Shown: positions 2,159-50,236 of the stretch, in pieces
Numbering within the stretch: position 1 is the first letter of the stretch
How the letters are laid out: each line of letters starts with the position of its first letter
NCBI GenBank assembly: GCA_011050465.1
Contig: DRFQ01000001.1
Location: 37,225-101,224, forward strand
Source of the DNA: Candidatus Nealsonbacteria bacterium
GTDB lineage: Bacteria; Patescibacteriota; Minisyncoccia; Minisyncoccales; RBG-13-36-15
Direction of reading: 5' to 3'
DNA: 64,000 nucleotides
Position numbers and translations under genes: made by a program
The notes under the pieces: generated by a model
What the model saw: only the letters and a program-made list of their open reading frames with translations
Databases searched by the model: none
Told to the model about the DNA's origin: nothing

Positions 2159-3214
2159 CTATTGTTCTTGGGTAAGAAATAGATTTCTTGCTTCATCCCA
2201 TATCTGAGAATTATTCTGAACACTCTTCATCCAGAACCACCATTCGGCTCCCCATAAATAAAACTCCTTGAAGCCGGTTCTTTTAGCAAATTCAATATTT
2301 TCTTTAAATTGAGTTGGATTCATTGTCTTTTGTTGCTCTTCAATTGGTGAATCATAAAGTAGTTTTTTCCCCCAAGGTTCAGCTTGAAGCTCAATTACTA
2401 TGACTTCTTTGCCAAATATTTTTTTAATAATCTGGGCTTTCCGCCAGTAAAAAGTTGGAGGAAAAGGATAATGTATATACATCCCTATCTGTCTAAACCC
2501 TCCTAAGTTTTTTTTCAAAAAATTTGGGAGGGTAAACCAGACCTTTTTATACATTGTCGTGCCTATGATATCTCCAAATCTGGCAGCTGTAATCCACAGG
2601 GACCCTTCTCCGCTATCTGAAATAATAACCGGCCTCTTTAAACGGTCTATAGATTTTACCAGTTCTATCTCTTTTTTCAAGAACACTTTATCAACCCAGG
2701 GACACTCGCCAAAAGGAAAAAATGGTTCGTTCTCTATTTGCCAATACTTGATGGTTTCTGAATTTTTATATCTATTAACAATTTTTTCTAACATTCTCAA
2801 AATCTTTTTTTGTTGCTGGTCTTTCGTTAGATTTTTTGCCCAATTGGGAGTGTGGCATTCCGGCCAGCGAGGAGTTTTCATGCCAATCGCTAAAAGAATT
2901 TGAGCTTCTCTTTTCTCGGCCTCCTCTATTTGCCAATCTAAGTCTCCAAAATTAAAATTTCCATCTTCTGGCTCAATTGAATCCCAGTGGGCGGCTACTT
3001 TCAAATTTTTTACTTCCAAATCATCAAGTAAGGCCAAATAGGTTTCTTGCCAATCTAATCCTAAAAGACTGGCGTGTTTTTGGGAAAAATTAACTCCCCA
3101 AATAATATCTTTAGCTATTGGCGGCTTCCCGATGAAAAGATAACCGGCAAAGACCAAAAGTAAAACAAAAATTCCCAATAGAATATATTTTAAAATCTTC
3201 TTAAATTTTTTCAT
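2159..3214 (-). CDS. membrane-anchored glycoside hydrolase (clan GH-A / GH5-like TIM barrel)
   Basis: 351 aa with an N-terminal TM helix. It has an ...YWQIENEPF motif (the NEP catalytic acid/base typical of GH-A enzymes). Confidence 0.55.
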   Translation of the reverse strand: MKKFKKILKYILLGIFVLLLVFAGYLFIGKPPIAKDIIWGVNFSQKHASLLGLDWQETYLALLDDLEVKNLKVAAHWDSIEPEDGNFNFGDLDWQIEEAEKREAQILLAIGMKTPRWPECHTPNWAKNLTKDQQQKKILRMLEKIVNRYKNSETIKYWQIENEPFFPFGECPWVDKVFLKKEIELVKSIDRLKRPVIISDSGEGSLWITAARFGDIIGTTMYKKVWFTLPNFLKKNLGGFRQIGMYIHYPFPPTFYWRKAQIIKKIFGKEVIVIELQAEPWGKKLLYDSPIEEQQKTMNPTQFKENIEFAKRTGFKEFYLWGAEWWFWMKSVQNNSQIWDEARNLFLTQEQ

Positions 3215-4157: not shown

Positions 4158-5522
4158 TTAGTACGGGGTCTGCACTATACGTTTGATATTATAAGTTCCT
4201 AATTTTTCTCCTTCTATAAAGCCCTGCATAGCGAACTCGGCAAGATAACCTTTCTCCAGCCAGTCAAAAAGCCACTGATTGGTATAGGCTGGGTTTTCCT
4301 GTAGAATACCAAAGCCCGATTTTAAAAGCCATCTCATATTAAATTCTTCTTGAGAACCGATTGGCGGGGCGATAATTATCGGCAATCCCAGGGCAGAATA
4401 AAAAGAAAGCTCTGATGGCTTTGTCCATAAAATATCGGTCTTTCTTAAGGCACGATTAAAATCTTGGAAATAACCCCCAATATCTTTTTCAAAAATTATT
4501 TCAACGTTTTTTTGTAAATACTCTTTGAGGCCTAATTTTTCTATATTTTTTTCAAAATATTCTCTTACTTTTTCTCTAATACCGGCTGCTAAAATTATTT
4601 TAATTTCATTTTTTTTGATTTTTTTAGCCAGGCTTTGAATAATCTTTATTCCAATTTCTTTTTGAGCTCCGGCTCCGCCAACAACAAACATTATTGTTAA
4701 AGAATGGTCAGGTTTTTCAGCTAATTTACCCAATTTTTTTTCAATTAATATGCTGTATTTTTCGAAATATTTTTTTTGGGGGTCTAAGTTCAGCATTCTA
4801 TATCTCAGGTCGGCTCTTAAAGTGTCCAATTTTACGCCCCCGATATTTTCCGAGGGCAAAGGAAAACCGGTCAAAAAGATATTCTTTGGTTTCACCCCAT
4901 ATAGCTTTAATCTTTCTACTACTCTTGTGGTTGGAGCAAAATACTTAATTTTGCTCGATCTTGGTTTTAAAGAAACCCAAGCCCTGGAAATGTCAGCATC
5001 GCAAATTACACAAAAAATTTCGCCTGGATAATTAAAAAATTCGGCCATAAAAGCTGGAATAAAAAAGGTGCTGATTAGAAAAAGAGGTTTTTGTTTGAGT
5101 CTCTCAATGAAATGCTTCCCCCAGTCTCTTTTGATTAAGGAAAAGACTTGTTTTAGTTGAAAGCTTGGCTTTGATAAATCTCTTTTTGGATAAAAACTAA
5201 GAATCTTCTGAAATTGATCAAAGATAAAAAAAACAGCCCGACCAATTAAGGGAATTCTTTTGAAAATTGAAACAAATTCGTAGAACTTCTTTGTGCTCTC
5301 CCAAATTTTTCGATCTTTCTCCGGAATCCCTTGATAGTCGTTGGCATTAATAATTTTCCCTTCAGGAGATAGTCCCTTTAAGGGGTGGGCTGTTCTCTGA
5401 TGGCCATAGCCCATATTTACAGATATTATCCAGGCCCGCCTAAATTTTTGGGATATTTCCTGATTCCTTATTATTTCTGACGACTTATTCAAAAATTTAG
5501 GTGGGCAGGCTTTTTGCTTCAT
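4158..5522 (-). CDS. putative glycosyltransferase (GT-B, MGDG-synthase/MurG-like); weak call
   Basis: 454 aa. It has an NMGYGHQRTAHPL motif near the N-terminus and a VVGGAGAQKE glycine-rich motif mid-protein, as in GT28-like enzymes. The assignment comes from motif memory only. Confidence 0.35.
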   Translation of the reverse strand: MKQKACPPKFLNKSSEIIRNQEISQKFRRAWIISVNMGYGHQRTAHPLKGLSPEGKIINANDYQGIPEKDRKIWESTKKFYEFVSIFKRIPLIGRAVFFIFDQFQKILSFYPKRDLSKPSFQLKQVFSLIKRDWGKHFIERLKQKPLFLISTFFIPAFMAEFFNYPGEIFCVICDADISRAWVSLKPRSSKIKYFAPTTRVVERLKLYGVKPKNIFLTGFPLPSENIGGVKLDTLRADLRYRMLNLDPQKKYFEKYSILIEKKLGKLAEKPDHSLTIMFVVGGAGAQKEIGIKIIQSLAKKIKKNEIKIILAAGIREKVREYFEKNIEKLGLKEYLQKNVEIIFEKDIGGYFQDFNRALRKTDILWTKPSELSFYSALGLPIIIAPPIGSQEEFNMRWLLKSGFGILQENPAYTNQWLFDWLEKGYLAEFAMQGFIEGEKLGTYNIKRIVQTPY

Positions 5523-7427: not shown

Positions 7428-7498
7428 GGAATTCCCTCCTTGATGAAACATGCTATTTACCAATACTTAACCCTATTGCATCCTTAGTTATTTGTCAA

Positions 7499-7600
7499 AC
7501 AAAAAACCGCCTTCTTGGCGATTGATAAAGTTAACTAACAACTAAAAACTATAAACTAAAAACTAGAAAAATGGGTCGTCTAGCGGATGAGATTAGAACC
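7499..7600. repeat. junction repeat J5: terminator module plus AT-rich TAAAAACT-type tract plus T-arm-like fragment
   Basis: 7499-7568 is near-identical to 48031-48100 (CAAAAAACCGCCTTCTTGGCGATTnATAAAGTTAACTAAnAACTAAAAACTATAAACTAA...). 7576-7600 (GTCGTCTAGCGGATGAGATTAGAACC) is related to 8291-8311. Confidence 0.8.
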
Positions 7601-17710: not shown

Positions 17711-19012
17711 CTATTTCTTCAAACGTTTTTTCATTTCTTTTATTATTTTTTCTGACTTTATCACTTCTTGTTTTCCGGTTTTCATATTTCTTATCAAAAC
17801 CACTTCCCCCAGAGCTTCTTTCTGGCCAATAATTAAAGTGTATTCGACTCCCATTCTATCGGCTAAATAAAGTTGGGCCTTTAAAGAATCTCTTCCAAAA
17901 GTTTCAGCTAAAGGAATTTTAGCCTTTCTAAACTCTTCGAAAAGTTTAAGTCCTTTTTTTTTGGCTAGTTTCCCTAGTTGAGCCAGAAAAATTTGCTTTT
18001 TAACTTCAACGGGAGGCTTCCATGTTTTTTCTTTCATTAAATTCACAATCCTTTCTACTCCGGCTGCCCCTCCCATACCCGGCGTATCTTTGCCCCCTAA
18101 AAGTTTCACCAAGACATCATATCTCCCGCCAGCAACTATTGCTCCCTGTCTTTTTCCTTCTTCGCCTTTATCAAAGATCTCAAAAACTGTTTTAGTATAA
18201 TAATCAAGTCCTCTTACAAGATAAGGATTAAGATAGTAAGGTAGCTCTAGTTCATCCAAGAATTCTAAAACTTCTCTAAAGTGATTATGACATTCCTGAC
18301 AGAGATGATCAATTATTTGAGGGGCCTGGTTTTTAACTCGTTGGCACTTTTCTTCCTGGCAATCTAAGATTCTGAGGGGATTTTCTCTAATTCTTCTTTG
18401 ACAACTATGACACAAACTCTCGGTTTTAGATTTTAAATAGCTTACTAAAAGTTTTTTATAATAAGGCCGGCATTGACTATCTCCTATACTATTGATTTCA
18501 ACGGTCAAATCTTCGAAACGAAGCTCTTTTAAAATATTATAAAAAATTTGGATAATCTGAGTATCAACAACTGGACTTTGTTCTCCGAAAACTTCAAAAC
18601 CAATTTGATGAAACTGACGAAATCTGCCAGCCTGTGGTCTCTCATAGCGAAAAAAGGGGCCAGAATACCAAAACTTTACCGGCTGAGGACGATTAAACAT
18701 CCCATGTTCAATATAGGCTCTAACCACGGACGGGGTCCCCTCTGGTCTGAGGGTCAACCAATCTCCTCCCTTGGTTCTAAATGTATACATTTGTTTCTGG
18801 ACAACATCGGTGCTCAACCCTGTTCCTTTTTCAAAAAGTCCAGCTTCCTCTAAAATCGGAGTTTCAATAAATCTAAAACCATAGAAATTGGCAATATTCT
18901 CAGCTATATTATAAAGTTTCTGAAAGTACTTCTGGTCTTCAGGAAGAATATCGTGCATTCCTTGGGGAGATTGATACCCTCTTTTTCTTTTTTTGGAAAT
19001 ACTTGAATCCAT
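17711..19012 (-). CDS. hisS: histidyl-tRNA synthetase
   Basis: 433 aa with class II motifs (LRPEGT, FRYERPQAGRFRQFHQ, GGRYD). Confidence 0.95.
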   Translation of the reverse strand: MDSSISKKRKRGYQSPQGMHDILPEDQKYFQKLYNIAENIANFYGFRFIETPILEEAGLFEKGTGLSTDVVQKQMYTFRTKGGDWLTLRPEGTPSVVRAYIEHGMFNRPQPVKFWYSGPFFRYERPQAGRFRQFHQIGFEVFGEQSPVVDTQIIQIFYNILKELRFEDLTVEINSIGDSQCRPYYKKLLVSYLKSKTESLCHSCQRRIRENPLRILDCQEEKCQRVKNQAPQIIDHLCQECHNHFREVLEFLDELELPYYLNPYLVRGLDYYTKTVFEIFDKGEEGKRQGAIVAGGRYDVLVKLLGGKDTPGMGGAAGVERIVNLMKEKTWKPPVEVKKQIFLAQLGKLAKKKGLKLFEEFRKAKIPLAETFGRDSLKAQLYLADRMGVEYTLIIGQKEALGEVVLIRNMKTGKQEVIKSEKIIKEMKKRLKK

Positions 19013-19154
19013 GCCCCGTAGTGAAATTTCGACTTAAATCAATGAGATGAAATCTCGGTTTATAATTTATATGTTGAATATCTTTTTCTCTCTTTTATGC
19101 CCCGTTTTACCTTGTTCGCCCTTCGGGCGAACTGTCGAAATTCTACTACGGGGC
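19013..19154. repeat. 142-bp intergenic element bounded by 21-bp inverted repeats (MITE-like or hisS leader)
   Basis: GCCCCGTAGTGAAATTTCGAC (19013-19033) matches the reverse complement of 19134-19154 (GCCCCGTAGTAGAATTTCGAC) at 19/21 positions. An inner hairpin GTTCGCCC-TTC-GGGCGAAC is present. Confidence 0.8.
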
Positions 19155-19161
19155 ATGTCTT

Positions 19162-19716
19162 CTAAGGGGTTTTATAAATGGGAGTGATAATTTTGGCAAT
19201 AGCTGTTGGGGGCCAAGCCCTGAAAAGAACTCGACCAATAATATAATTTTCTGGTAAAGATCCCCAACGTCTCGAGTCAGAAGAAAAAGCCCGGTTATCT
19301 CCCAAAACAAAGTATTTATTTTCTTCTAAAGTAACAAGAAAGTCTCCGAGGGTAACCGATGGCTCAAAAAAATAGAACGATTCATCTAACATGTAGGCTT
19401 CTCCGTCTTCTGAAATAAATATTTGACCTTCTTTTATCTGAATTGTTTCTCCGGGAAGACCGATAATTCTTTTAATATATCGTTGAGAAGGATCCTGAGG
19501 ATACTTGAAAACTATCACTTCACCTCTTTGGGGTTCTCGGAATCTATAGGAAATTTCATCGATAATTAAATAGTCCCCACTATTAAAACTAGGCTCCATC
19601 GAGGCTCCCCTAACAATAAAGGGCTGAAATAAAAAATAACGGACAGGCACCACTATTAATAAAGCGATAATAACTATTTTTGAGATCTCCCAGAGAAAAG
19701 ACAATATATTTCGCAT
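19162..19716 (-). CDS. lepB: signal peptidase I
   Basis: 184 aa with GASMEPS (catalytic Ser), RIIGLPGE and GDNRAFSSDSR boxes. Confidence 0.9.
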   Translation of the reverse strand: MRNILSFLWEISKIVIIALLIVVPVRYFLFQPFIVRGASMEPSFNSGDYLIIDEISYRFREPQRGEVIVFKYPQDPSQRYIKRIIGLPGETIQIKEGQIFISEDGEAYMLDESFYFFEPSVTLGDFLVTLEENKYFVLGDNRAFSSDSRRWGSLPENYIIGRVLFRAWPPTAIAKIITPIYKTP

Positions 19717-29192: not shown

Positions 29193-30521
29193 TTACCGAC
29201 CTAAAATATCGTTAATCTTAGCTCGGGTAGTTGAACCAACAAAACCAGTACCTTCCGTTAATCCCCAAGGAGCTAAGATATCTTCAGCATATTTTTCCTG
29301 AAAGCGAATTACTGCCTTCTTAGTTAAAGGACCAAACCAACCAGACACTATGCCTTCAGGATAAATCTCAGGACCTTGGGCTTTTAAGAAGATCTGTAAG
29401 TATCTGACGTCATCATTTGTCTGGTCATATTTAAGATTAATGGTGAATCTGTAATTAGTTGGGATTTCTTCAGTGACCTCCTTTTCCAAAAGTTGTTGAA
29501 GCTGAACTTTTAATTGGTTAATCTTTTCTGAAATTTCAGCAATCTTTTGTTTAAGTTCCTCAACGGTCATCTCAACAATTGGTTTTTCTTTTATCTCTCC
29601 CATTAGGGCAAACAAAGTAAAGTGGATGGTCTGGGCAGTGACAGTGTTAGTTAATGTGTTAACTTCGCTTTTCAATGGTTTCCAGCTTTTAGTAGTTTTA
29701 TCCCACCAGTAAATCTTGAGAGTCTTTTCATCAACCCCGACTTCTTTTACTTTTGCATCTGTATAGGTAAAAGTAATCGCCACTACTCCCTCAAATTTTT
29801 CTAATTCTTCTCCTCCAGAAAGAGCTGTAAAATCAGCTACTAAGTCACCAACTATTTTAGTATTTTTAGGTAAGGGATTGGTTTTAATTGCCTCAACTTT
29901 ATCTTTTGGCTCAATTTTAACTACCACTGTTCCCTTAATGCTGTAGGAAGGAAAAACTACTTTAGCTAACTCTCCAGATTCAAAGGTTTTTCTAACCTCT
30001 CCTCCTAAATTTTGATAAACATTACCTTGACCGGTAGTGCTGACTGGTGGAGAAATAACTCCACCACCACCAGTAACAACAACTGTTTTTCTCCAGCTTG
30101 TATTAATATTGCAATTAGCACAACTAAAACTAATCCAGCCCACATTTTCTCCCCAGGCATAACCTGAAAAATCACCGGTTGAACCATCAATAATTACCTG
30201 AGAACCAGTGGGATTGAAATTTATCCAACCAACATTCTCGCCCCAGGCATATCCTGAAAGATTACCCTGACCGTCATTGGTTACCCCGCCATAAGTAGGG
30301 TTGAGATTAATCCAACCAACATTTTCTCCCCAGGCATAGCCAGCAACTGCGCTATTTGTTACCGTTACCCCCTCGCCCTGGCTGGGATTAAAGTTGATCC
30401 AGCCCGCGTTTTCTCCCCAAGCGTAACCCGTGGTGTTTCCGGCAGCCCAAACTGGAAAGGCGAAGAAAAATCCTACCCATAAAATGACGGCAAGGAGAGT
30501 ATATTTTGTATTTTGGAACAT
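29193..30521 (-). CDS. secreted repeat protein with C-terminal peptidoglycan-binding domain
   Basis: 442 aa. It has a signal peptide (...FAFPVWAAG), four GYAWGENxGWI(N/S)F repeats, a coiled-coil segment, and a C-terminal PG_binding_1-like motif (VRYLQIFLKAQG...GWFGPLTKKAVIRFQEKY). Confidence 0.7.
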   Translation of the reverse strand: MFQNTKYTLLAVILWVGFFFAFPVWAAGNTTGYAWGENAGWINFNPSQGEGVTVTNSAVAGYAWGENVGWINLNPTYGGVTNDGQGNLSGYAWGENVGWINFNPTGSQVIIDGSTGDFSGYAWGENVGWISFSCANCNINTSWRKTVVVTGGGGVISPPVSTTGQGNVYQNLGGEVRKTFESGELAKVVFPSYSIKGTVVVKIEPKDKVEAIKTNPLPKNTKIVGDLVADFTALSGGEELEKFEGVVAITFTYTDAKVKEVGVDEKTLKIYWWDKTTKSWKPLKSEVNTLTNTVTAQTIHFTLFALMGEIKEKPIVEMTVEELKQKIAEISEKINQLKVQLQQLLEKEVTEEIPTNYRFTINLKYDQTNDDVRYLQIFLKAQGPEIYPEGIVSGWFGPLTKKAVIRFQEKYAEDILAPWGLTEGTGFVGSTTRAKINDILGR

Positions 30522-30853
30522 ATAACCTGGAATTTATAACTTATAACTTTCTTAGAATGCCCAATACCATCTGCTCCAACGTCTTCAGTTAATTCCATTG
30601 CTCTTCCATAGTTCTTTTTAGATACATAATTTTCGACCAAAGAAAAATGTAATAGATATTTGGCTTTCTTAAGTGATCCGTACGAGGTTTCTAAAAAATT
30701 CTTGTAGACATTATCCATTTTTCTGGCATAACCTTCAATGTAGTCTAAGACTATCGAAAGAGCAGCTCTTCGTAACTAAGAAGTTACTCCGTATAATTCA
30801 TCTCTGGGAAAATCTTTAGTAATTTTATAAACCAAATGAGCAAACTCATCCAT
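30473..30853 (-). pseudogene. four-helix-bundle protein (23S rRNA-IVS protein / DGR Avd family) with in-frame TAG
   Basis: My translation from the ATG at 30851-30853 gives MDEFAHLVYKITKDFPRDELYGVTS*LRRAALSIVLDYIEGYARKMDNVYKNFLETSYGSLKKAKYLL... The TAG at 30776-30778 replaces the conserved Gln of the ...SQLRRAAxSI...EG motif. The track only lists the downstream 81-aa part. Confidence 0.65.
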
Positions 30854-30926
30854 TTTAAATTACAAATGACTATGAAATTGGATCATAAATTCACGGGTTA
30901 CAGGTTAAGATACAAATTACAAGATT

Positions 30927-32636
30927 CTACCCGCGGACGCAACGGACATACAAAAGAAAAGTATCCTTATCGTAGCCGTCCACGCCGCCGGTGCCGAAGA
31001 ACACGACCCAGGCGCCGGCAGGGTTACCGACGAAGGTAGAACCCGACCAATAGTAGCTAGACTGAGTAGCGGGGAAATAAGTGGTGTTAATAGCTGGGCT
31101 AACATTTTGGTAATTAACAATGCTTTGCAGTTCTTTTATATTGGGCAATCTCCAGTCAGTCTGGCCGGCAAAATTAAGTCCTTCGCAGTACGAAGGAGCA
31201 GCTGCCCAATAATTAGTTTCAATCGTACCGGTGGTGCAAGTTGAGCCGGAAAGGCCTTTTGAACATTTCTGCCACATTAAATTAGTGTTGTTATCGGTGA
31301 TGGTCTCGTCTCCGTTGTCAGTAAATGACGGATCGAGGGTCCCGGAGTTTGCAGCAGTGTATTCAGCATCCTGCCCCGCTGGAGCATCACCGCAGGTTAT
31401 TGAGCCTCCCGTTGTGTTCCAACAGCCGGTTTGACCAGTATCGGGAAGAAGCCTTTTAAAGGTTCCGGCCACCCCAAATATGGAAATTCCGCTTTTAATG
31501 TTGCCTGCAGTCAGATCAGCATCTCCTTCAGCATAACCAGTGCCATTGTGATAACCTTGGGTAATGGTCAGGTTAGTAGTCGAGGGAGTAATAGTCTGCT
31601 GACCGACATTAGTCATTGTGCCGGTTAAAAGAGCGCCGGCTTTTGTCCAGGCCTCAAGTCCTGAGAGGATGTTGCCAACCACAGCGTCACCAGCCCCAGT
31701 ATCCCCGGGTAGAGCATAAGTGGCCGAAGGATAATCGCCGGTTAGTCCTACGCCAAAAAGAGTGTCTTTTTTTACCGTGCCAACAGTAAGATTGGCCGCG
31801 TTGTAAGTTCCGGCTCCGGCAGCCGTAGTTAAAACCGTGCTCTGGATTGTATCGCCGTAAGGATAACCGGCTGTAACGGTTCCGGCGATTCCAAAAATGG
31901 TTTTCCCGCTCAAAATATTGCCTGCTATCAAATCAATATCCACCGCGTCCAATGTTGTCGCGCTGTAATAGCCGGCGCTTACAGAGGTAGTGGCGGCTGA
32001 TAAAGTTTGAGTCGGCATTGTGCCGGTGATAAGCGCGCCTGCCTTGCTCCAAGCTTCCAAACCGCTTAAAATATCTGCGGCAGTACTGTCAGCAGCCGCG
32101 GTATCCCCGGGCAGAGTATAAGTGGCCGAAGGATAATCGCCAATCACGCTGAAAAGATCTACCCCGCTTTTTATCTTGCCCACAGTCAAATCAGCATCTC
32201 CTTCAGCATATCCTGTCCCATCGTGATAACCTAAGGTAATGGTCTGATTGGTTGTAGTGGGAGTAATAATCTGTTGTCCTACATTAGTCATTGTGCCAGC
32301 TACTCCCAAATAAGAAGTGCCAGAAAGCACTTTAGCAGCATCAATGGTGGGGATAGCTTCGTAAATCTGGGTGAGAGTATACATTGAGGAAGCTGGTGAG
32401 ACTGAAGGAGAAAATGAATGATCGCCTTCAGTGGAAGTAGCGTTGGTAGTTAAACGGGTATAGATATTTGAAAGGGTATACATAGTGGCTGCCGGCGAAG
32501 CCGAGGGTTCAAGATTGCCGGCTTTGACGATAACGAAGACAATGGCTACAGAAATGATGATGGTGACAAAACTTAGGAAAATTGTCCTGAATCTGTTCAT
32601 AGTTTTACGCAAAAATACAAAGTATTTCTTTTGCAC
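30927..32636 (-). CDS. membrane-anchored surface protein with internal duplications and a C-terminal DUF1566/C-type-lectin-fold domain (DGR-target type)
   Basis: 569 aa with an N-terminal TM anchor and repeated modules. The C-terminus is ...DWRLPNIKELQSI...YYWSGSTFVGNPAGAWVVFFGTGGVDGYDKDTFLLYVRCVRG*. The gene is visibly more GC-rich than its surroundings. Confidence 0.7.
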   Translation of the reverse strand: MQKKYFVFLRKTMNRFRTIFLSFVTIIISVAIVFVIVKAGNLEPSASPAATMYTLSNIYTRLTTNATSTEGDHSFSPSVSPASSMYTLTQIYEAIPTIDAAKVLSGTSYLGVAGTMTNVGQQIITPTTTNQTITLGYHDGTGYAEGDADLTVGKIKSGVDLFSVIGDYPSATYTLPGDTAAADSTAADILSGLEAWSKAGALITGTMPTQTLSAATTSVSAGYYSATTLDAVDIDLIAGNILSGKTIFGIAGTVTAGYPYGDTIQSTVLTTAAGAGTYNAANLTVGTVKKDTLFGVGLTGDYPSATYALPGDTGAGDAVVGNILSGLEAWTKAGALLTGTMTNVGQQTITPSTTNLTITQGYHNGTGYAEGDADLTAGNIKSGISIFGVAGTFKRLLPDTGQTGCWNTTGGSITCGDAPAGQDAEYTAANSGTLDPSFTDNGDETITDNNTNLMWQKCSKGLSGSTCTTGTIETNYWAAAPSYCEGLNFAGQTDWRLPNIKELQSIVNYQNVSPAINTTYFPATQSSYYWSGSTFVGNPAGAWVVFFGTGGVDGYDKDTFLLYVRCVRG

Positions 32637-33644: not shown

Positions 33645-34909
33645 TATAGTAGAGGAAATTTCTTACACAATTTTTTTATTTCTCTTTTCACCCGCCTAAG
33701 TTTTGCTTCGCAAAATTTTGGCGGGTTAATTTTTGAACTTTCAATAACTTCGTTAATCCAATAAGCTATCTTTCGCATCTCCTTTTCCTTCATCCCTCGG
33801 CTGGTAAGAGATGGCGTTCCAATTCTTAATCCCGAAGGGTCAAAAGGCTTTCTCTGGTCGTAGGGAATTCCATTTTTATTGGTTACTATCCCAACCTTTT
33901 CTAATAAATTCTGGGCTTCTTTGCCCGAAAGTCCTTTATTGGTTAAATTAATTAGAATCAAGTGGTTATCGGTTCCTCCGGAGATTAAATCGAAATTGTA
34001 TTTCTTGAGTTCTTCAGCCAAGACTTTAGCGTTTTTCACTATTTGTTGAATATATTTCTTAAATTGCGGTTTTTGGGCTTCTTTTAGCGCAACACCAAGA
34101 GCGCAAATTGTGTGATTATGTGGTCCTCCTTGAATTCCGGGGAAAACTTTCGGAAAAATCTTTTTCCGTAATGCTTCCCTGCAGATAATTATTGCTCCTC
34201 GCGGCCCCCTTAGAGTTTTATGTGTGGTTAAAGTCACAACATCTGCAAAAGGAAAAGGGCTGGGATGTACAGAGCCTGCAATTAAACCTGAAATATGGGC
34301 GATATCAGCCATTAAGTAAGCTGTAATCTTATGGGCAATCTGGGCGAATTTTTTAAAATTTACTTTTCTTGGATAAGCGCTGTATCCTGTAATAATTAAC
34401 TTTGGTCGTTCTTTTTTAGCTAATTTTTCGATTTCTCTATAATCTAAAAATCCTTTTTTATTTACAAAATAATTAACAACTTTGAAATCCTGGCCGGAAA
34501 GAGAAACTTTTGCCCCTTGGCTTAGATGGCCGCCATGACTCAAGGCCAGGCTCATAATTTTATCGCCAGGATTTAAAAGTCCTCTTAAAACTGCGTAATT
34601 TGCCAGACTTCCAGAATAAGGCTGAACATTTACTGCCCATTTTTTTGGACTTATCTTAAAAACTTTTTTTACTCTTTCTTCAACTAACGTCTCTAATTCA
34701 TCAATAATCCTTGTCCCCCCGTAATATCTCTTATATGGCCTCCCCTCAGAGTATTTGGCAATAAAGAGCGAGCTTAGAGCCTCTCTGACAGCTGTCGAAG
34801 CATAGTTTTCAGAAGCTATTAAATTCAAAGTCTCTTCGTGCCTTTTTCTTTCTTTGTCAATAAGAGCTGCAATTTTAGGATCTTTCTTTCGAATAATTTT
34901 AATGTCCAT
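33644..34909 (-). CDS. glyA: serine hydroxymethyltransferase
   Basis: 421 aa with LIASENY, the PLP-lysine region TLTTHKTLRGPRG, and GGPHNH. Confidence 0.95.
   Translation of the reverse strand: MDIKIIRKKDPKIAALIDKERKRHEETLNLIASENYASTAVREALSSLFIAKYSEGRPYKRYYGGTRIIDELETLVEERVKKVFKISPKKWAVNVQPYSGSLANYAVLRGLLNPGDKIMSLALSHGGHLSQGAKVSLSGQDFKVVNYFVNKKGFLDYREIEKLAKKERPKLIITGYSAYPRKVNFKKFAQIAHKITAYLMADIAHISGLIAGSVHPSPFPFADVVTLTTHKTLRGPRGAIIICREALRKKIFPKVFPGIQGGPHNHTICALGVALKEAQKPQFKKYIQQIVKNAKVLAEELKKYNFDLISGGTDNHLILINLTNKGLSGKEAQNLLEKVGIVTNKNGIPYDQRKPFDPSGLRIGTPSLTSRGMKEKEMRKIAYWINEVIESSKINPPKFCEAKLRRVKREIKKLCKKFPLL
33690..33726. repeat. 37-bp palindromic element inside glyA coding sequence
   Basis: ACCCGCCTAAGTTTTGCTTCGCAAAATTTTGGCGGGT, translated in-frame as PPKFCEAKLRRV. 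A homologous copy lies at 35378-35414. Confidence 0.85.
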
Positions 34910-34913
34910 AAAA

Positions 34914-35108
34914 TTAGTGTTTAAAACATCTAATATTAGTTAGCGCCATTGGAACTTTATATTTATTACAAAGATTAATTGTCTCTTTATTACGAATAGA
35001 ACCACCCGGCTGAATAATTGCTTTTACTCCTGCCTTAATTAAAATTTCAGGGCCATCCGGGGATGGAAAGAAACCATCGGAGGCAGCCACTAAATTCTTA
35101 AGAGACAC
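34914..35108 (-). pseudogene. purH: C-terminal remnant of PurH (AICAR transformylase end)
   Basis: The 64-aa sequence ...[58 protein letters not shown] matches the extreme C-terminus of PurH. About 270 residues of the transformylase domain are missing, and the frame differs from the upstream part. Confidence 0.65.
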
Positions 35109-35721
35109 TTTTGAAAAATTTAGTTATATTTTTATCGTATTCGGCTGTTCGCTGAAAGACTTTTTTGGCTAGTTCTAATCGAATTTTCTCTGGAATCTCT
35201 TTCTTCTGTTTTAGGACCTTTATAATCATACCATAATCTTCCGGGTCAATGACTACTGCTACATATTTATAATTTTTAGCTGCGGCTCTAATCATTGTTG
35301 GCCCGCCAATGTCGATATTATCAACGGCTTTCTCAAGAATGTAATCTTTTTGAGTAATAACTTTCTCAAAAGGATAAACCCGCCTAAGTTTTGTTTTACA
35401 AAATTTGGGTGGGTAAAGGTTGCAAACTACCATATCAATTGGCTGAATACCCAATTTTTTAGCCTCTTTCTGGTGTCTTAAATTTTTCCGGTCGTAAAGC
35501 AATGCTCCTTCAATCTGGAAAGAAATTGTCTTCATTCTTCCGTCGAAAGCTTCCGGATTCCTGGTAATTTTTTCGATTGGAATTATTTTAATCCCAGTTT
35601 TTTTAAGAATTTTGGCCGTCCCGCCAGTTGATACTATTTCCCAACCTAATTTAGTCAAATTTTTAGCAAAATCGGCTATTCCTATTTTATCCCAGACACT
35701 AATCAAAGCTCGTTTTTTCAT
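35098..35721 (-). CDS. purH: IMP cyclohydrolase (MGS-like) domain of PurH, stand-alone after internal deletion
   Basis: 207 aa with [15 protein letters not shown]...STGGTAK...DGRMKT...NLYP[insert]FEKV...[15 protein letters not shown]. Confidence 0.75.
35378..35414. repeat. 37-bp palindromic element inside purH coding sequence
   Basis: ACCCGCCTAAGTTTTGTTTTACAAAATTTGGGTGGGT, translated in-frame as [12 protein letters not shown]. It interrupts the conserved NLYPF motif. Confidence 0.85.
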
Positions 35722-36964: not shown

Positions 36965-38203
36965 TTAAATTTTGAGATTGGCATTGGCCTTTATTCCTTT
37001 CCAGTTTTTTCTCTCGCCCGCTTTCCGGTGGGAACAAGCAGCCCTTGCTATCATTGCTGCATTATCAGTACAGAATTGATTGTCTGGCATTAAGTACCCA
37101 GTGCTTGGTATTTCTTGTTGAATTTTCTCTTTAAGCTGTTTTCTCAACTCTTTGTTCGCCGCCACTCCTCCACTTAGTAATATTGTTTTTACTTTATAAT
37201 GCTTAGCTGCCTTTAGGGTTTTTTTAATTAAAACGTCAATTATTGCTTGTTGAACTTCGACACACATTGCCCGAATAAAGTTCTTATCTTTTCTTTCTTT
37301 GGGTCTTTTGTCTTTGACTTTATACAATACGGCGGTTTTTAATCCAGAAAAACTGAAATCATAATCTTTAGTATAAATCATCGGTCGGGGAAGTTTAATT
37401 TCGAATGCAACCCTACGGGGAGTCCTCTTCGAGTCCAGCAGATTTCGTGCTTCGGATTTCCATCGCCGAGCAAGCTCGGCTATGGCCGGTCCTCCCGGAT
37501 AGCCTAATCCCAAAATCTTAGCCACCTTATCAAAACACTCACCAGCCGCATCATCACGAGTTTCCCCCAGTAATTTATATTCGACCGAAGGGAGAATATC
37601 TCTGGAAGCATATTTCCCAATACTTTCGATTAGAATCAACTGAGTATGGCCGCCAGCAACTGATAAACAAATAGCTGGAAATATATCTTTTTTCTGAATC
37701 TTAATTTCTTCTCTAATAAAGTTGGCAAAAATATGTCCTTCTATATGATTAACCGATATAATTGGCAACTGCCAGTAATAAGAAAGGGCTCTTGCAAAAT
37801 TGATTCCTACCCATAAAGCAGGCTCTAACCCCGGACCTATTGTTATTGCAATAGAATTAATTTTTGGTTTCTTATAATTTGCTAAAAATTTTTCTAACTT
37901 TTTATAGAGATGCTCTTCTCTTGTTAATATTTCTTTAAATTTTTCGAATTTTTTCTTTTGGGCTCTTGATTTATCTTTGACTTTCACTAACATACCGGCT
38001 TTTTTTAATGCTCTTTTTAGAACTGGCACTAAATTTTTCTGATGCTCTCTTTTAGCTAAAGTCGGCACCACTCCTCCCCATTTTTGATGAATCTTTATTT
38101 GGGAGGAAATGATATTAGACAAAATTCTAAAGCGAGACTTCTGACACTTAGCCAAGGCAATGGCTGTTTCATCACAAGAAGTTTCAATAGCAAGAATAAT
38201 CAT
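36965..38203 (-). CDS. tsaD: tRNA N6-adenosine threonylcarbamoyltransferase TsaD (with insertions)
   Basis: 412 aa with ILAIETSCDETA, HIEGH, GYPGGPAI, FSFSGLKT and LSGGVAAN motifs. Confidence 0.9.
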   Translation of the reverse strand: MIILAIETSCDETAIALAKCQKSRFRILSNIISSQIKIHQKWGGVVPTLAKREHQKNLVPVLKRALKKAGMLVKVKDKSRAQKKKFEKFKEILTREEHLYKKLEKFLANYKKPKINSIAITIGPGLEPALWVGINFARALSYYWQLPIISVNHIEGHIFANFIREEIKIQKKDIFPAICLSVAGGHTQLILIESIGKYASRDILPSVEYKLLGETRDDAAGECFDKVAKILGLGYPGGPAIAELARRWKSEARNLLDSKRTPRRVAFEIKLPRPMIYTKDYDFSFSGLKTAVLYKVKDKRPKERKDKNFIRAMCVEVQQAIIDVLIKKTLKAAKHYKVKTILLSGGVAANKELRKQLKEKIQQEIPSTGYLMPDNQFCTDNAAMIARAACSHRKAGERKNWKGIKANANLKI

Positions 38204-47552: not shown

Positions 47553-47620
47553 ATCAAAAAACCGCCTTCTTGCCTACCTAAATTTCGAAGAAACTTTGGC
47601 GGGCTTGGCGGTTTTTTGAT
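47553..47620. terminator. 14-bp-stem hairpin, junction J4
   Basis: ATCAAAAAACCGCC...GGCGGTTTTTTGAT is a perfect inverted repeat with A/T tracts on both sides. Its left half equals the CAAAAAACCGCCTTCTTG motif of the other junctions. Confidence 0.65.
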
Positions 47621-47929: not shown

Positions 47930-48029
47930 TATTTTAAAAAAAACCGACCTTTATATTTATATAATTATTCTATCATTAAATCGTTTTTTTAGAAATCAAC
48001 TTAATAAAATTGTATCTTTTCTTATTATA

Positions 48030-48143
48030 CCAAAAAACCGCCTTCTTGGCGATTTATAAAGTTAACTAATAACTAAAAACTATAAACTAATAACTGAAAA
48101 TTACTTTGTAATTTTTATTGGCTCCGCGGGTAGGAATCTCACT
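48030..48143. repeat. junction repeat J3: terminator module plus AT-rich tract plus tRNA-3'-end-like fragment
   Basis: 48031-48100 is near-identical to 7499-7568. 48122-48143 in reverse complement reads GTGAGATTCCTACCCGCGGAGC(CA), which resembles the T-arm/acceptor 3' half of the tRNA-Leu at 28211-28233. Confidence 0.75.
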
Positions 48144-48997: not shown

Positions 48998-49026
48998 AAT
49001 TATTAGCGTTTTATTTTTCTATTCTA

Positions 49027-49090
49027 TCAAAAAATCGCCTTCTTGGCGATTTTCTGAAGCTAACTCCCCCTACAGGACGCATTCAGAACC
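49027..49090. repeat. junction repeat J2
   Basis: TCAAAAAATCGCCTTCTTGGCGATTTTCTGAAGCTAACTCC... matches 50177-50218 at 38/42 positions. It is followed by CCCTACAGGACGCATTCAGAACC, related to 48355-48380. Confidence 0.8.
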
Positions 49091-50059: not shown

Positions 50060-50176
50060 TTCTTCTCTCCTCCGTTCGTGGCTGTTCTTGGCAATCCTTA
50101 TTCAATTGAGAAAGTGCGAAACTCTCTCTGTTAATTTTATATCTTAACGGCTTCCGAAAATAAGTCAAGTCTACTA

Positions 50177-50236
50177 TCAAAAAACCGCCTCTATGGCGAT
50201 TTTCTGAAGCTAACTCCGGGAGTAGGACTCGAACCG
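50177..50236. repeat. junction repeat J1 abutting the leuS stop codon
   Basis: Terminator module TCAAAAAACCGCCTCTATGGCGATTTTCTGAAGCTAACTCC plus GGGAGTAGGACTCGAACCG. The reverse complement CGGTTCGAGTCCTACTCCCGGAG corresponds to T-loop, T-stem 3' strand and acceptor 3' strand. Confidence 0.8.

Follow-up and report, generated by a model that had tools for sequence, protein, structure and literature searches.

A 35-nt palindromic element with 4-bp target-site duplications, probably mobile, in genes and intergenic regions of Patescibacteria

In a 64-kb stretch of DNA from Candidatus Nealsonbacteria (assembly GCA_011050465.1, contig DRFQ01000001.1), referred to here as the window (36.6% GC, ~89% coding), two genes for unrelated enzymes, glyA and purH, carry the same short palindrome within their reading frames. 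An earlier reading of this DNA from its letters only (the sequence-only reading) proposed that the palindrome is an insertion and belongs to an undescribed family that spreads in frame through protein genes like the Rickettsia palindromic elements (RPEs). Is it an insertion, how widely is it distributed, and what kind of element is it? We show that it has a modal core of 35 nt, that it occurs five times in the window and in hundreds of copies in other Patescibacteria (the candidate phyla radiation [CPR]), and that it duplicates 4 bp of its target. [quoted passage not shown]

Five copies of the element in the window

The two palindromes lie exactly where they had been described, in minus-strand genes, at 33690-33726 in glyA, which encodes serine hydroxymethyltransferase (SHMT), and at 35378-35414 in purH, here a gene of 207 aa for IMP cyclohydrolase only; the proposed translation of the glyA copy, INPPKFCEAKLRRV, is correct, as is that of the purH copy. 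The identities of SHMT and PurH come from Pfam and PDB searches. A pattern built from these two sequences found no match in 100 dinucleotide shuffles of the window, against three real loci, and relaxed pattern searches together with a covariance model brought the total to five. The two copies of the sequence-only reading are therefore real, and to them are added those at 2498-2532, 5435-5505, and 47573-47603. The second of these includes a supposed half-site remnant at 5435-5452, but the copy is complete: this segment forms its left arm, and the right arm lies at 5492-5505, across a 43-nt loop. Four of the five copies have perfect target duplications, and four lie inside genes.

35379..35413: copy in purH-N, 35-nt core CCCGCCTAAGTTTTGTTTTACAAAATTTGGGTGGG, duplicated TAAA at 35375-35378 and 35414-35417, putting 13 codons between NL and YPF
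33691..33725: copy in the C-terminal variable segment of glyA (SHMT), 35-nt core, flanks TTCA (33687-33690) and TTAA (33726-33729), an imperfect duplication
2498..2532: copy in a glycoside hydrolase-like (GH-like) gene, 35-nt core CCCTCC...GGAGGG, duplicated TAAA at 2494-2497 and 2533-2536
5435..5505: long-loop copy near the N-terminus encoded by a GT-B-like (DUF6938) glycosyltransferase gene, 14-nt arms, 43-nt loop, 71-nt core, duplicated CAGG at 5431-5434 and 5506-5509, an in-frame insertion of 75 nt after codon 5
47573..47603: short, slightly degenerate copy in the loop of an intrinsic terminator, 31-nt core CCTACCTAAATTTCGAAGAAACTTTGGCGGG, duplicated CTTG at 47569-47572 and 47604-47607, covariance model match with E = 1.6e-4

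The hosts of these copies are as follows.

35098..35721, minus strand: purH-N (IMP cyclohydrolase / MGS-like domain only), 207 aa
33644..34909, minus strand: glyA (SHMT), 421 aa
2159..3214, minus strand: GH-like gene (Glyco_hydro_42/10-like), 351 aa
4158..5522, minus strand: DUF6938 / GT-B-like glycosyltransferase gene, 454 aa
~47554-47617: interrupted intrinsic terminator AAAAAACCGCC..GGCGGTTTTTT, with the 31-nt copy in its loop

The unit of the element is a core, CCCNCCNAARTTTT-(loop)-AAAAYTTNGGNGGG, with a modal length of 35 nt, bordered by the 4-bp target-site duplication. The 37-bp palindrome first described in glyA and purH is real, but its first A and last T belong to the duplication, so that the inserted unit is the 35-nt core (CCC...GGG) plus 4 bp. 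A target duplication had also been suspected in the YP residues on both sides of the purH insert; the duplication stands, and it is made up of the tetranucleotide TTTA together with the CCC/GGG ends of the element itself. Most often the net gain is 35 + 4 = 39 nt, or 13 codons, and the host gene therefore stays in frame.

Four independent assemblies have these purH and glyA copies without any difference in sequence, and the copies are therefore not artefacts. No copies are present in 51 kb from the closest relatives, against five in the 64 kb of the window, and the element looks to have been recently active in this Nealsonbacteria lineage, in a lineage-specific burst.

Empty sites at three loci

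Comparison with relatives shows what these loci look like without the element. The purH insert is a clean addition of 13 aa relative to all solved PurH structures and to 28 close orthologues (58-79% identity), all of which have an unbroken NLYPF motif. At the nucleotide level, the relatives L121 and L124 (L-numbers are labels of compared loci or contigs) have the empty site AAT CTT|TAT CCT TTT, and the window is exactly 39 nt longer, with the structure TTTA-[35-nt core]-TTTA. Likewise, the 13 aa of the GH-like protein are missing from all 10 of its orthologues, which read YKKVW|FRQIG, and L246 (86% nucleotide identity) has a single TTTA in GTT TGG TTT AGG where the window has TGG TTTA-[core]-TTTA GAC. 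In the terminator, the two flanks of the copy overlap on CTTG and together rebuild AAAAAACCGCCTTCTTGGCGGTTTTTT, a sequence that is intact four more times in the window. Insertion in purH, the GH-like gene, and the terminator is thus proven by empty sites. For the glycosyltransferase gene, taking out the 71-nt core and one CCTG restores the N-terminus MKQKAWIISVNMGYGH, as read from the window sequence alone. The glyA case is weaker. SHMT has 421 aa, 12 more than the 409 aa of its relatives, and the alignment shows a 9-aa gap and a divergent flank; the segment is variable, its flanks TTCA/TTAA are imperfect, and the boundaries cannot be fixed at ~70% identity.

The sequence-only reading had itself weighed two other origins for the glyA and purH copies, namely that the peptide is ancestral and that the copies arose by local gene conversion, and the two genes do lie 1.7 kb apart in one operon. 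Neither origin agrees with what was found. The insert is missing from the 28 PurH and 10 GH-like orthologues; the window has three further copies, and other genomes have hundreds, in contexts unrelated to one another. We regard both origins as extremely improbable, and the proposal of an insertion is upheld by orthologues that have no insert and by empty sites that differ by exactly 39 nt and a duplicated TTTA.

Near-identical bidirectional terminator-like hairpins, AAAAAACCGCCTTCTTGGCG(A/G)TTTT, stand at 7496-7539, 48027-48070, 49024-49067, and 50174-50217. The sequence downstream of this hairpin family is also conserved (..AAGTTAACTAA..), and the member at 47554-47617 is the one interrupted by the fifth copy of the element.

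Distribution in Patescibacteria

Other copies were collected by a pattern search of one genome per species (185,579 species) and by a scan of metagenome contigs with a differently designed pattern. The searches gave at least 120 loci in the genome contigs and at least 120 in the metagenome contigs. About 240 copies, from >200 other CPR contigs, were analyzed, and 229 unique copies had adequate flanks. Among the matches listed, almost all named ones are metagenome-assembled genomes (MAGs) of Patescibacteria, mostly of Parcubacteria-type lineages (Yanofsky-, Wolfe-, Nealson-, Kaiser-, Buchanan-, Jackson-, Lipton-, Azam-, Nomura-, Zambryski-, Colwell-, Yonath-, and Sungii-bacteria, Paceibacterota, and Minisyncoccia), and the genome GC of the matches listed ranges from 32% to 56%. 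The element is best read as specific to Patescibacteria, mostly to Parcubacteria-type lineages, and the proposed RPE-like in-frame spread of an undescribed family is borne out by the hundreds of copies in this group. There were no matches among 2.9 million viral contigs, and carriage by phages was rejected on this ground.

The sole non-CPR-labelled genome match listed is L067, a 17-kb contig of Candidatus Methylomirabilis sp. DR5_44_9. It has flanks in common with Paceibacterota copies (GGGTGAATCCGC), and it is probably a mis-binned CPR contig.

At the gathering score, Rfam 15 yielded only tRNA, rRNA, and tmRNA and no family matching the element, and a permissive scan over the copies remained at the level of chance (E > 0.9). 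No description of such a CPR element was found in the literature by sequence or by topic, which, given incomplete literature coverage, is absence of evidence only; a 2024 review of MITEs makes no mention of CPR phyla (PMC10969869). Patescibacteria make up a large share of bacterial diversity, and little is known of their mobile DNA and gene-expression signals. One easily recognized 35-nt element that extends over many candidate phyla and is still active in some lineages would offer a marker of recent genome change.

Target-site duplication in the family

Perfect 4-nt direct repeats flank the CCC...GGG core in 22 of 124 copies of the genome set, against 3.7 +/- 1.7 expected. In the metagenome set, which was ascertained differently, they flank 20 of 119 copies, against 2.9 +/- 1.5 expected. 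This enrichment, ~6-7x over chance, is found only at the exact register and length: none of the repeats extends to 5 nt, and shifted registers give 0-1. The duplicated tetranucleotides vary from copy to copy (TAAA, TTTA, CAAG, CTTG, CTGG, TATA, and others) and fit YNNR. These results show that the element inserts at a YNNR tetranucleotide and duplicates it. Duplications of another register or length, or a 37-nt element with a 2-bp duplication, are disfavored by the restriction of the enrichment to the exact 4-nt register, partial matches not being in excess.

Architecture of the hairpin

The element forms a nearly perfect hairpin made of two 14-nt terminal inverted arms (CCCNCCNAARTTTT / AAAAYTTNGGNGGG), 1-3 more variable complementary pairs, and a loop of ~3 nt. 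Among the 229 unique copies, core length is 31-40 nt, and 136 cores are exactly 35 nt. The inner 5-11 nt are highly variable, with 107 distinct sequences in 122 copies, and still paired: one inner pair is UA in 24 copies, GC in 21, CG in 16, and AU in 3, and it is unpaired in 4 of 70. The covariation score of the inner pairs, 0.204, compares with 0.096 for shuffled sequences, and none of 500 shuffles scored as high. Two positions of the stem are fixed as non-Watson-Crick, core position 7 as T.T (A.A on the other strand) and position 10 as G.T (A.C on the other strand). Both mismatches are kept in the genome set and in the metagenome set, for which the search pattern left those positions free.

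One orthologous locus is represented in three Yanofskybacteria, with identical 12-nt flanks (L014:31-66, L083:219-253, and L104:4675-4709), and in L083 the core is reversed relative to L014 and L104. Judged from this flipped core, the interior of the hairpin appears to invert in place, which would also account for the occurrence of the position-7 and position-10 asymmetries in both combinations.

The spacing of the arms is variable, from 3 to >100 nt, and long-loop copies of 44-131 nt have unrelated inner sequences, one of them holding a tRNA gene. This variation bears on the possibility that the 35-nt form is immobile and that the mobile unit is a longer insertion sequence (IS) or MITE of 100 bp to kilobases, which has the arms for its terminal inverted repeats and makes the 4-bp duplication on transposing; loss of its interior by deletion would then leave abutting arms, with frame-restoring derivatives selected in genes. 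The long-loop copies, including the 71-nt copy in the window, fit this proposal, and it removes the geometric problem that a 35-bp duplex poses to a transposase (see below). IS1380 makes 4-bp duplications and has CC... ends, and IS5 and IS701 also make 4-bp duplications. The element presumably fits DDE families such as IS1380, as tabulated in ISfinder, in duplication length and terminal dinucleotide, a likeness that is no more than a lead; the searches found neither a transposase gene nor a full-length IS that ends in this way. However, core length is tightly distributed, and the inner stems are perfectly complementary yet differ from copy to copy, even within the window, unlike what independent deletions of one parent would leave. 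No full-length parent was seen in ~1.6 Mb of loci, and a kilobase-sized first insertion into essential genes (gatA, mur ligases, mfd) would have to be survived before the deletion. Together, these considerations make a longer mobile parent with immobile 35-nt derivatives rather unlikely.

Copies in coding sequence

Long open reading frames (ORFs) contain 56 of the 229 unique copies (24%), the rest being intergenic. Copies in genes are thus strongly under-represented, because the window, as an example of a CPR genome, is ~89% coding. Perfect duplications are found in 15 of the 56 ORF copies versus 20 of the 173 others (p = 0.0096), and sizes that preserve the frame in 42 of 56 versus 104 of 173 (p = 0.055). 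This is the pattern expected if the coding copies are younger and have been filtered by selection.

Among 59 coding copies elsewhere, two open phases are used in a ratio of 30:22, giving the peptides (T/A)R(Q/L)(N/S)F..NLGG (30 copies) and PPKF..K(L/F)RR(V/A) (22 copies), and the third phase, which normally meets TAA or TAG, is used by 7. It had been remarked that the glyA and purH copies share a phase. They do, but with only two phases open the coincidence carries no information, and the GH-like copy is translated in the other open phase, as TLPNFLKKNLGGF. The hosts elsewhere are unrelated housekeeping proteins (among them MiaA, GatA, Mur ligases, Dus, trigger factor, an AddA-like helicase, Mfd, and RecG), so that, as with RPEs, insertion is in frame and into genes for unrelated proteins. 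Thirteen-residue loops added to essential enzymes would be a natural experiment in insertion tolerance, parallel to that of the Rickettsia RPEs in another reduced-genome lineage. In the annotation of CPR MAGs, puzzling additional loops, lengthened N-termini, and tRNA genes with an interruption find an explanation once the element is recognized.

The purH insertion adjoins the Tyr of NLYPF, which we take to be the catalytic Tyr104 of human ATIC. In an AlphaFold (AF2) model of PurH-N (pTM 0.84), the insert is an unstructured, low-confidence loop, with pLDDT <50 at residues 107-112. Between purH-N and glyA, only the end of the second purH domain is left:

34909..35098, minus strand: remnant of purH-C (AICARFT), the last ~64 codons only

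At this position, relatives have a 322-aa AICARFT gene (253 + 69 aa in L124). Judged from this gene content, purH is decaying in this lineage, with the purine step being lost; no more than ~64 codons of its AICARFT partner are left, and selection on purH has probably relaxed. Decay of the host gene makes insertion into NLYPF less remarkable than it appears.

Intergenic copies and RNA genes

Many intergenic copies stand 6-16 nt ahead of a start codon, and among the arms lying 5-16 nt before ATG the form GGAGGG accounts for 6 of 16, against a background of 11% (p = 0.006). A second group lies 37-65 nt upstream of a gene with no other Shine-Dalgarno (SD)-like sequence between, and here 34 of 44 copies have their TTAGG arm on the side of the gene, where the background is 53% (p = 0.001). 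At such loci, ~20 or more copies form the tip of intergenic hairpins of 110-160 nt (-40 to -55 kcal/mol), in which the flanks of the element are themselves inverted repeats. The genes downstream of these long leader hairpins encode GroEL, GroES, a sigma factor, and the products of rplB, rplC, rplF, rplJ, rpsH, rpsR, smpB, and ftsX, and in one ribosomal-protein operon two consecutive genes are each preceded by an element-tipped hairpin.

Element-tipped hairpins are found at L208:2480-2640 and 3020-3180 and likewise in L195, L076, L162, L061, L131, L004, L012, and L017. Their outer arms differ by lineage with pairing kept, and GAGCGAA / TTCGCTC-like motifs are common to them. These hairpins may represent a leader structure, or else a family of repeats larger than the element.

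The positions of these copies raise the possibility that the element is in the first place a structured signal with a function for the host, such as a conserved hairpin that serves Parcubacteria in leaders, in processing, or in translation initiation (as an anti-SD/SD stem, as a site bound by an RNase or a protein, or as a 5' stabilizer), and that the coding copies are accidental by-products of the process, whatever it is, by which the element is copied. Consistent with such a function, the arms are conserved over the 32-56% GC range, the stem irregularities are fixed in position, the gene-facing arm is biased to an SD-like form, and the leader hairpins stand before GroEL, GroES, RplB/C/F/J, RpsH/R, and SmpB; moreover, the arms exactly bracket a tRNA-Arg gene at one locus, and at another a copy lies 8 nt upstream of the 16S rRNA 5' end. 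Against it, the orientation of the element relative to genes shows no overall bias, and the sense strand of the leader copies is more stable in only 14 of 44, the opposite of what is expected of a selected RNA hairpin with G.U pairs. Furthermore, coding sequence and a terminator loop have received new insertions that duplicated their targets, which needs an insertion mechanism at the DNA level in any case, close relatives function without copies at these sites, and no Rfam family matches. A primary role as a host signal therefore seems unlikely. Since the sense strand is not favored and orientation is unbiased, we treat RNA-level function as a possible co-option of the mobile element and not as its primary nature. 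Even so, the element could provide a handle on CPR transcription and translation leaders.

Three narrower RNA or regulatory interpretations were also considered. An RNA hairpin selected on the sense strand is not supported by the 14 of 44 leader copies. An intrinsic terminator was rejected: there is no U-run, the flanks are T-rich upstream and A-rich downstream, and orientation is unbiased, and in the window a genuine terminator has served the element as a target and is not itself one of its copies. A PurR-type operator common to glyA and purH was rejected as well, the other copies being in unrelated genes and the arm spacing varying.

Several copies are associated with RNA genes. At L008:6540-6740, a complete tRNA-Ile(GAU) has the element in its T-loop (TCAGG-CCTG[core]TGAAAAT-CCTGA), and ARAGORN recognizes this tRNA only once the element has been taken out. 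At L191:3501-3605, the arms bracket a whole tRNA-Arg(UCU) exactly, one arm abutting tRNA position +1 and the other following a 5-nt trailer; the tRNA could be loop cargo, or the arms a processing stem. The copy at L089:~2150-2215 ends 8 nt upstream of the 16S rRNA 5' end (GGAGGG-taaatttg-AGAGTTTGATCCTAGCTCAGG). tRNA-like 5' fragments (acceptor plus D-arm) abut copies at L030:5040-5140, at L080:1255-1350, and at the first copy of L234, beside intact tRNA genes. Insertion into tRNA D-loops was considered for these three loci and rejected when in-silico removal of the element gave no tRNAs, so that they are tRNA-like fragments and only the tRNA-Ile of L008 holds. L080 also has a solitary degenerate arm (CTTGCCCGCCCATCTTTT).

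Relation to known repeats

The element resembles an RPE in behavior, a MITE in architecture, and a REP in size, and by the characters that define them it is neither a REP nor an RPE. RPEs are palindromic repeats that are inserted in frame in many unrelated housekeeping genes and translated as additional stretches of peptide, and RNA genes and intergenic DNA contain them as well (PMC10969869; PMC3184786). The CPR element shares with them in-frame insertion into unrelated housekeeping genes, copies in RNA genes and intergenic DNA, and occurrence in the reduced genomes of host-dependent bacteria. In contrast, RPEs are ~105-150 bp long, belong to Rickettsia, and encode peptides of ~35-50 aa; the element described here has a 35-nt core, is found, among the matches listed, almost only in Patescibacteria, encodes 13 aa, and has no sequence similarity to RPEs. 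For the CPR element, unlike RPEs, a 4-bp target duplication and empty sites are demonstrated.

MITEs are defined by terminal inverted repeats, target duplications, absence of coding capacity, hairpin formation, intergenic preference, and empty and filled sites (PMC10969869; PMC3184786). Like prokaryotic MITEs (e.g., Correia, Nezha, ERIC, and RUP), the CPR element has terminal inverted repeats, shows duplications around some of its copies, folds into a stable hairpin, prefers intergenic DNA, and occasionally supplies expression signals. Its 14-nt arms, present in all copies partly through ascertainment, fall within the ~4-30 bp of MITE terminal repeats; the core is far below 500 bp and leaves no room for an ORF, let alone a transposase; flanking direct repeats border four of the five window copies; and purH, the GH-like gene, and the terminator paralogues provide the empty and filled sites. 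Unlike the MITEs described in those reviews (~100-440 bp), it is several-fold shorter and essentially two abutting terminal repeats; it has no known cognate IS, and its arms are conserved across many candidate phyla, not within one genus.

With REP/REPIN elements, the element shares an imperfect palindrome of ~35 nt, within the 21-65 bp of REPs (PMC3184786), conserved stem irregularities, several to many copies, and a position mostly near gene ends. REPs lie outside genes, have a GTAG or CGTC tag, and make no target duplications, whereas the CPR element is free of such tags, has 4-bp duplications, and enters ORFs, with four of the five window copies and 56 of 229 others inside them. Movement by a REP-associated tyrosine transposase (RAYT), a Y1 enzyme of the HUH class acting on single-stranded hairpins, would suit the size of the palindrome, its fixed stem irregularities, and the terminator-loop and tRNA T-loop targets, which are consistent with targeting of hairpins or single-stranded DNA. 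HUH peel-and-paste transposition, as in IS200/IS605, makes no target duplications; here, variable 4-bp duplications are present. A GTAG or CGTC tag, the criterion given in PMC3733652, is missing from both ends, where the flank profiles are TTNA / TNAA or CTTG / CAAG. With 24% of copies intragenic and no Y1 transposase in the window, we consider mobilization by a RAYT improbable.

An integron attC site was also considered and rejected. attC sites have R''/R' core sites of consensus RYYYAAC...GTTRRRY and form cassette arrays beside an integrase; the arms here are GCCTAAG...CTTAGGC, the copies are dispersed singly in housekeeping genes, and there is no integrase in the window.

Mechanism and fate of the element

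How might a non-autonomous element of this size move? We suggest that an enzyme encoded elsewhere in the genome recognizes the arms and moves whatever lies between them, because loops of 3 to >100 nt occur, including one with a tRNA gene. The substrate may be the hairpin form, as a single strand or a cruciform, or the short copies may derive from longer ones, because a rigid 35-bp duplex cannot set both ends 4 bp apart. Cut-and-paste of so short a unit with a 4-bp stagger is a mechanistic question in its own right. Coding insertions would last only at positions that tolerate a surface loop of 13 residues or in genes for which selection has already relaxed, as may be so for purH. Some intergenic copies may have been co-opted, with the GGAGGG/AGGCGGG arm as a ribosome-binding site or the copy as the tip of a long leader hairpin.

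Several points weigh against a mobile element of this kind. Perfect duplications flank only ~15% of copies outside the window, and duplications with one mismatch are not in excess, so that the copies that have none are not obviously accounted for by older duplications having simply been eroded by mutation. Most other copies have near-palindromic flanks, TTYA...TRAA or CTTG...TGAA (e.g., TTCA..TAAA and TTAA..TAAA), which cannot be derived from a plain 4-bp duplication. There is no transposase among the 55 ORFs of the window and no autonomous parent in the ~1.6 Mb of loci, where no inverted arm pairs 0.4-4 kb apart bound a long ORF; searches for an autonomous parent among solo arms, such arm pairs, and long ORFs between degenerate arms gave nothing convincing. 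The geometric argument on the 35-bp duplex is an inference only. Conservation of the arms over very divergent lineages is unusual for a purely selfish MITE, and, coupled with the presence of copies in the leaders of genes with high expression, gives a hint of some function for the host. The pattern-based collection of copies inflates the apparent conservation.

A bolder proposal joins mobility and host function: the 35-nt hairpin would itself transpose, as a folded single strand or cruciform, preferentially into YNNR sites that include exposed hairpin loops such as the terminator loop and the tRNA T-loop, and it would have been domesticated on a large scale in Parcubacteria as a leader, ribosome-binding, or processing module before ribosomal-protein, chaperonin, and RNA genes. 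We consider this full scenario possible but doubtful. If the 35-nt hairpin does transpose itself, it would be the smallest known element making target-site duplications.

Other features of the window and compared loci

Between hisS and a signal-peptidase gene, the spacer holds a 29-nt inverted repeat (86% complementary) at 19005-19033 / 19134-19162, with arms 100 nt apart; its sequence is unrelated to that of the element. The region 29193-32636 encodes two large secreted or surface proteins with internal repeats, comprising direct-repeat families of 87-90 nt and of 402/675 nt spacing, and one of the two has an Lcl_C-like C-terminus in database annotation. In TsaD (36965-38200), a lysine-rich segment of ~60 aa, also unrelated to the element, splits the Pfam match in two. 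Finally, L250:10130-10411 (GCA_011049515.1, from the same population) has an extra 93-aa gene with a weak 23S_rRNA_IVP match that is missing at that position in the other assemblies.

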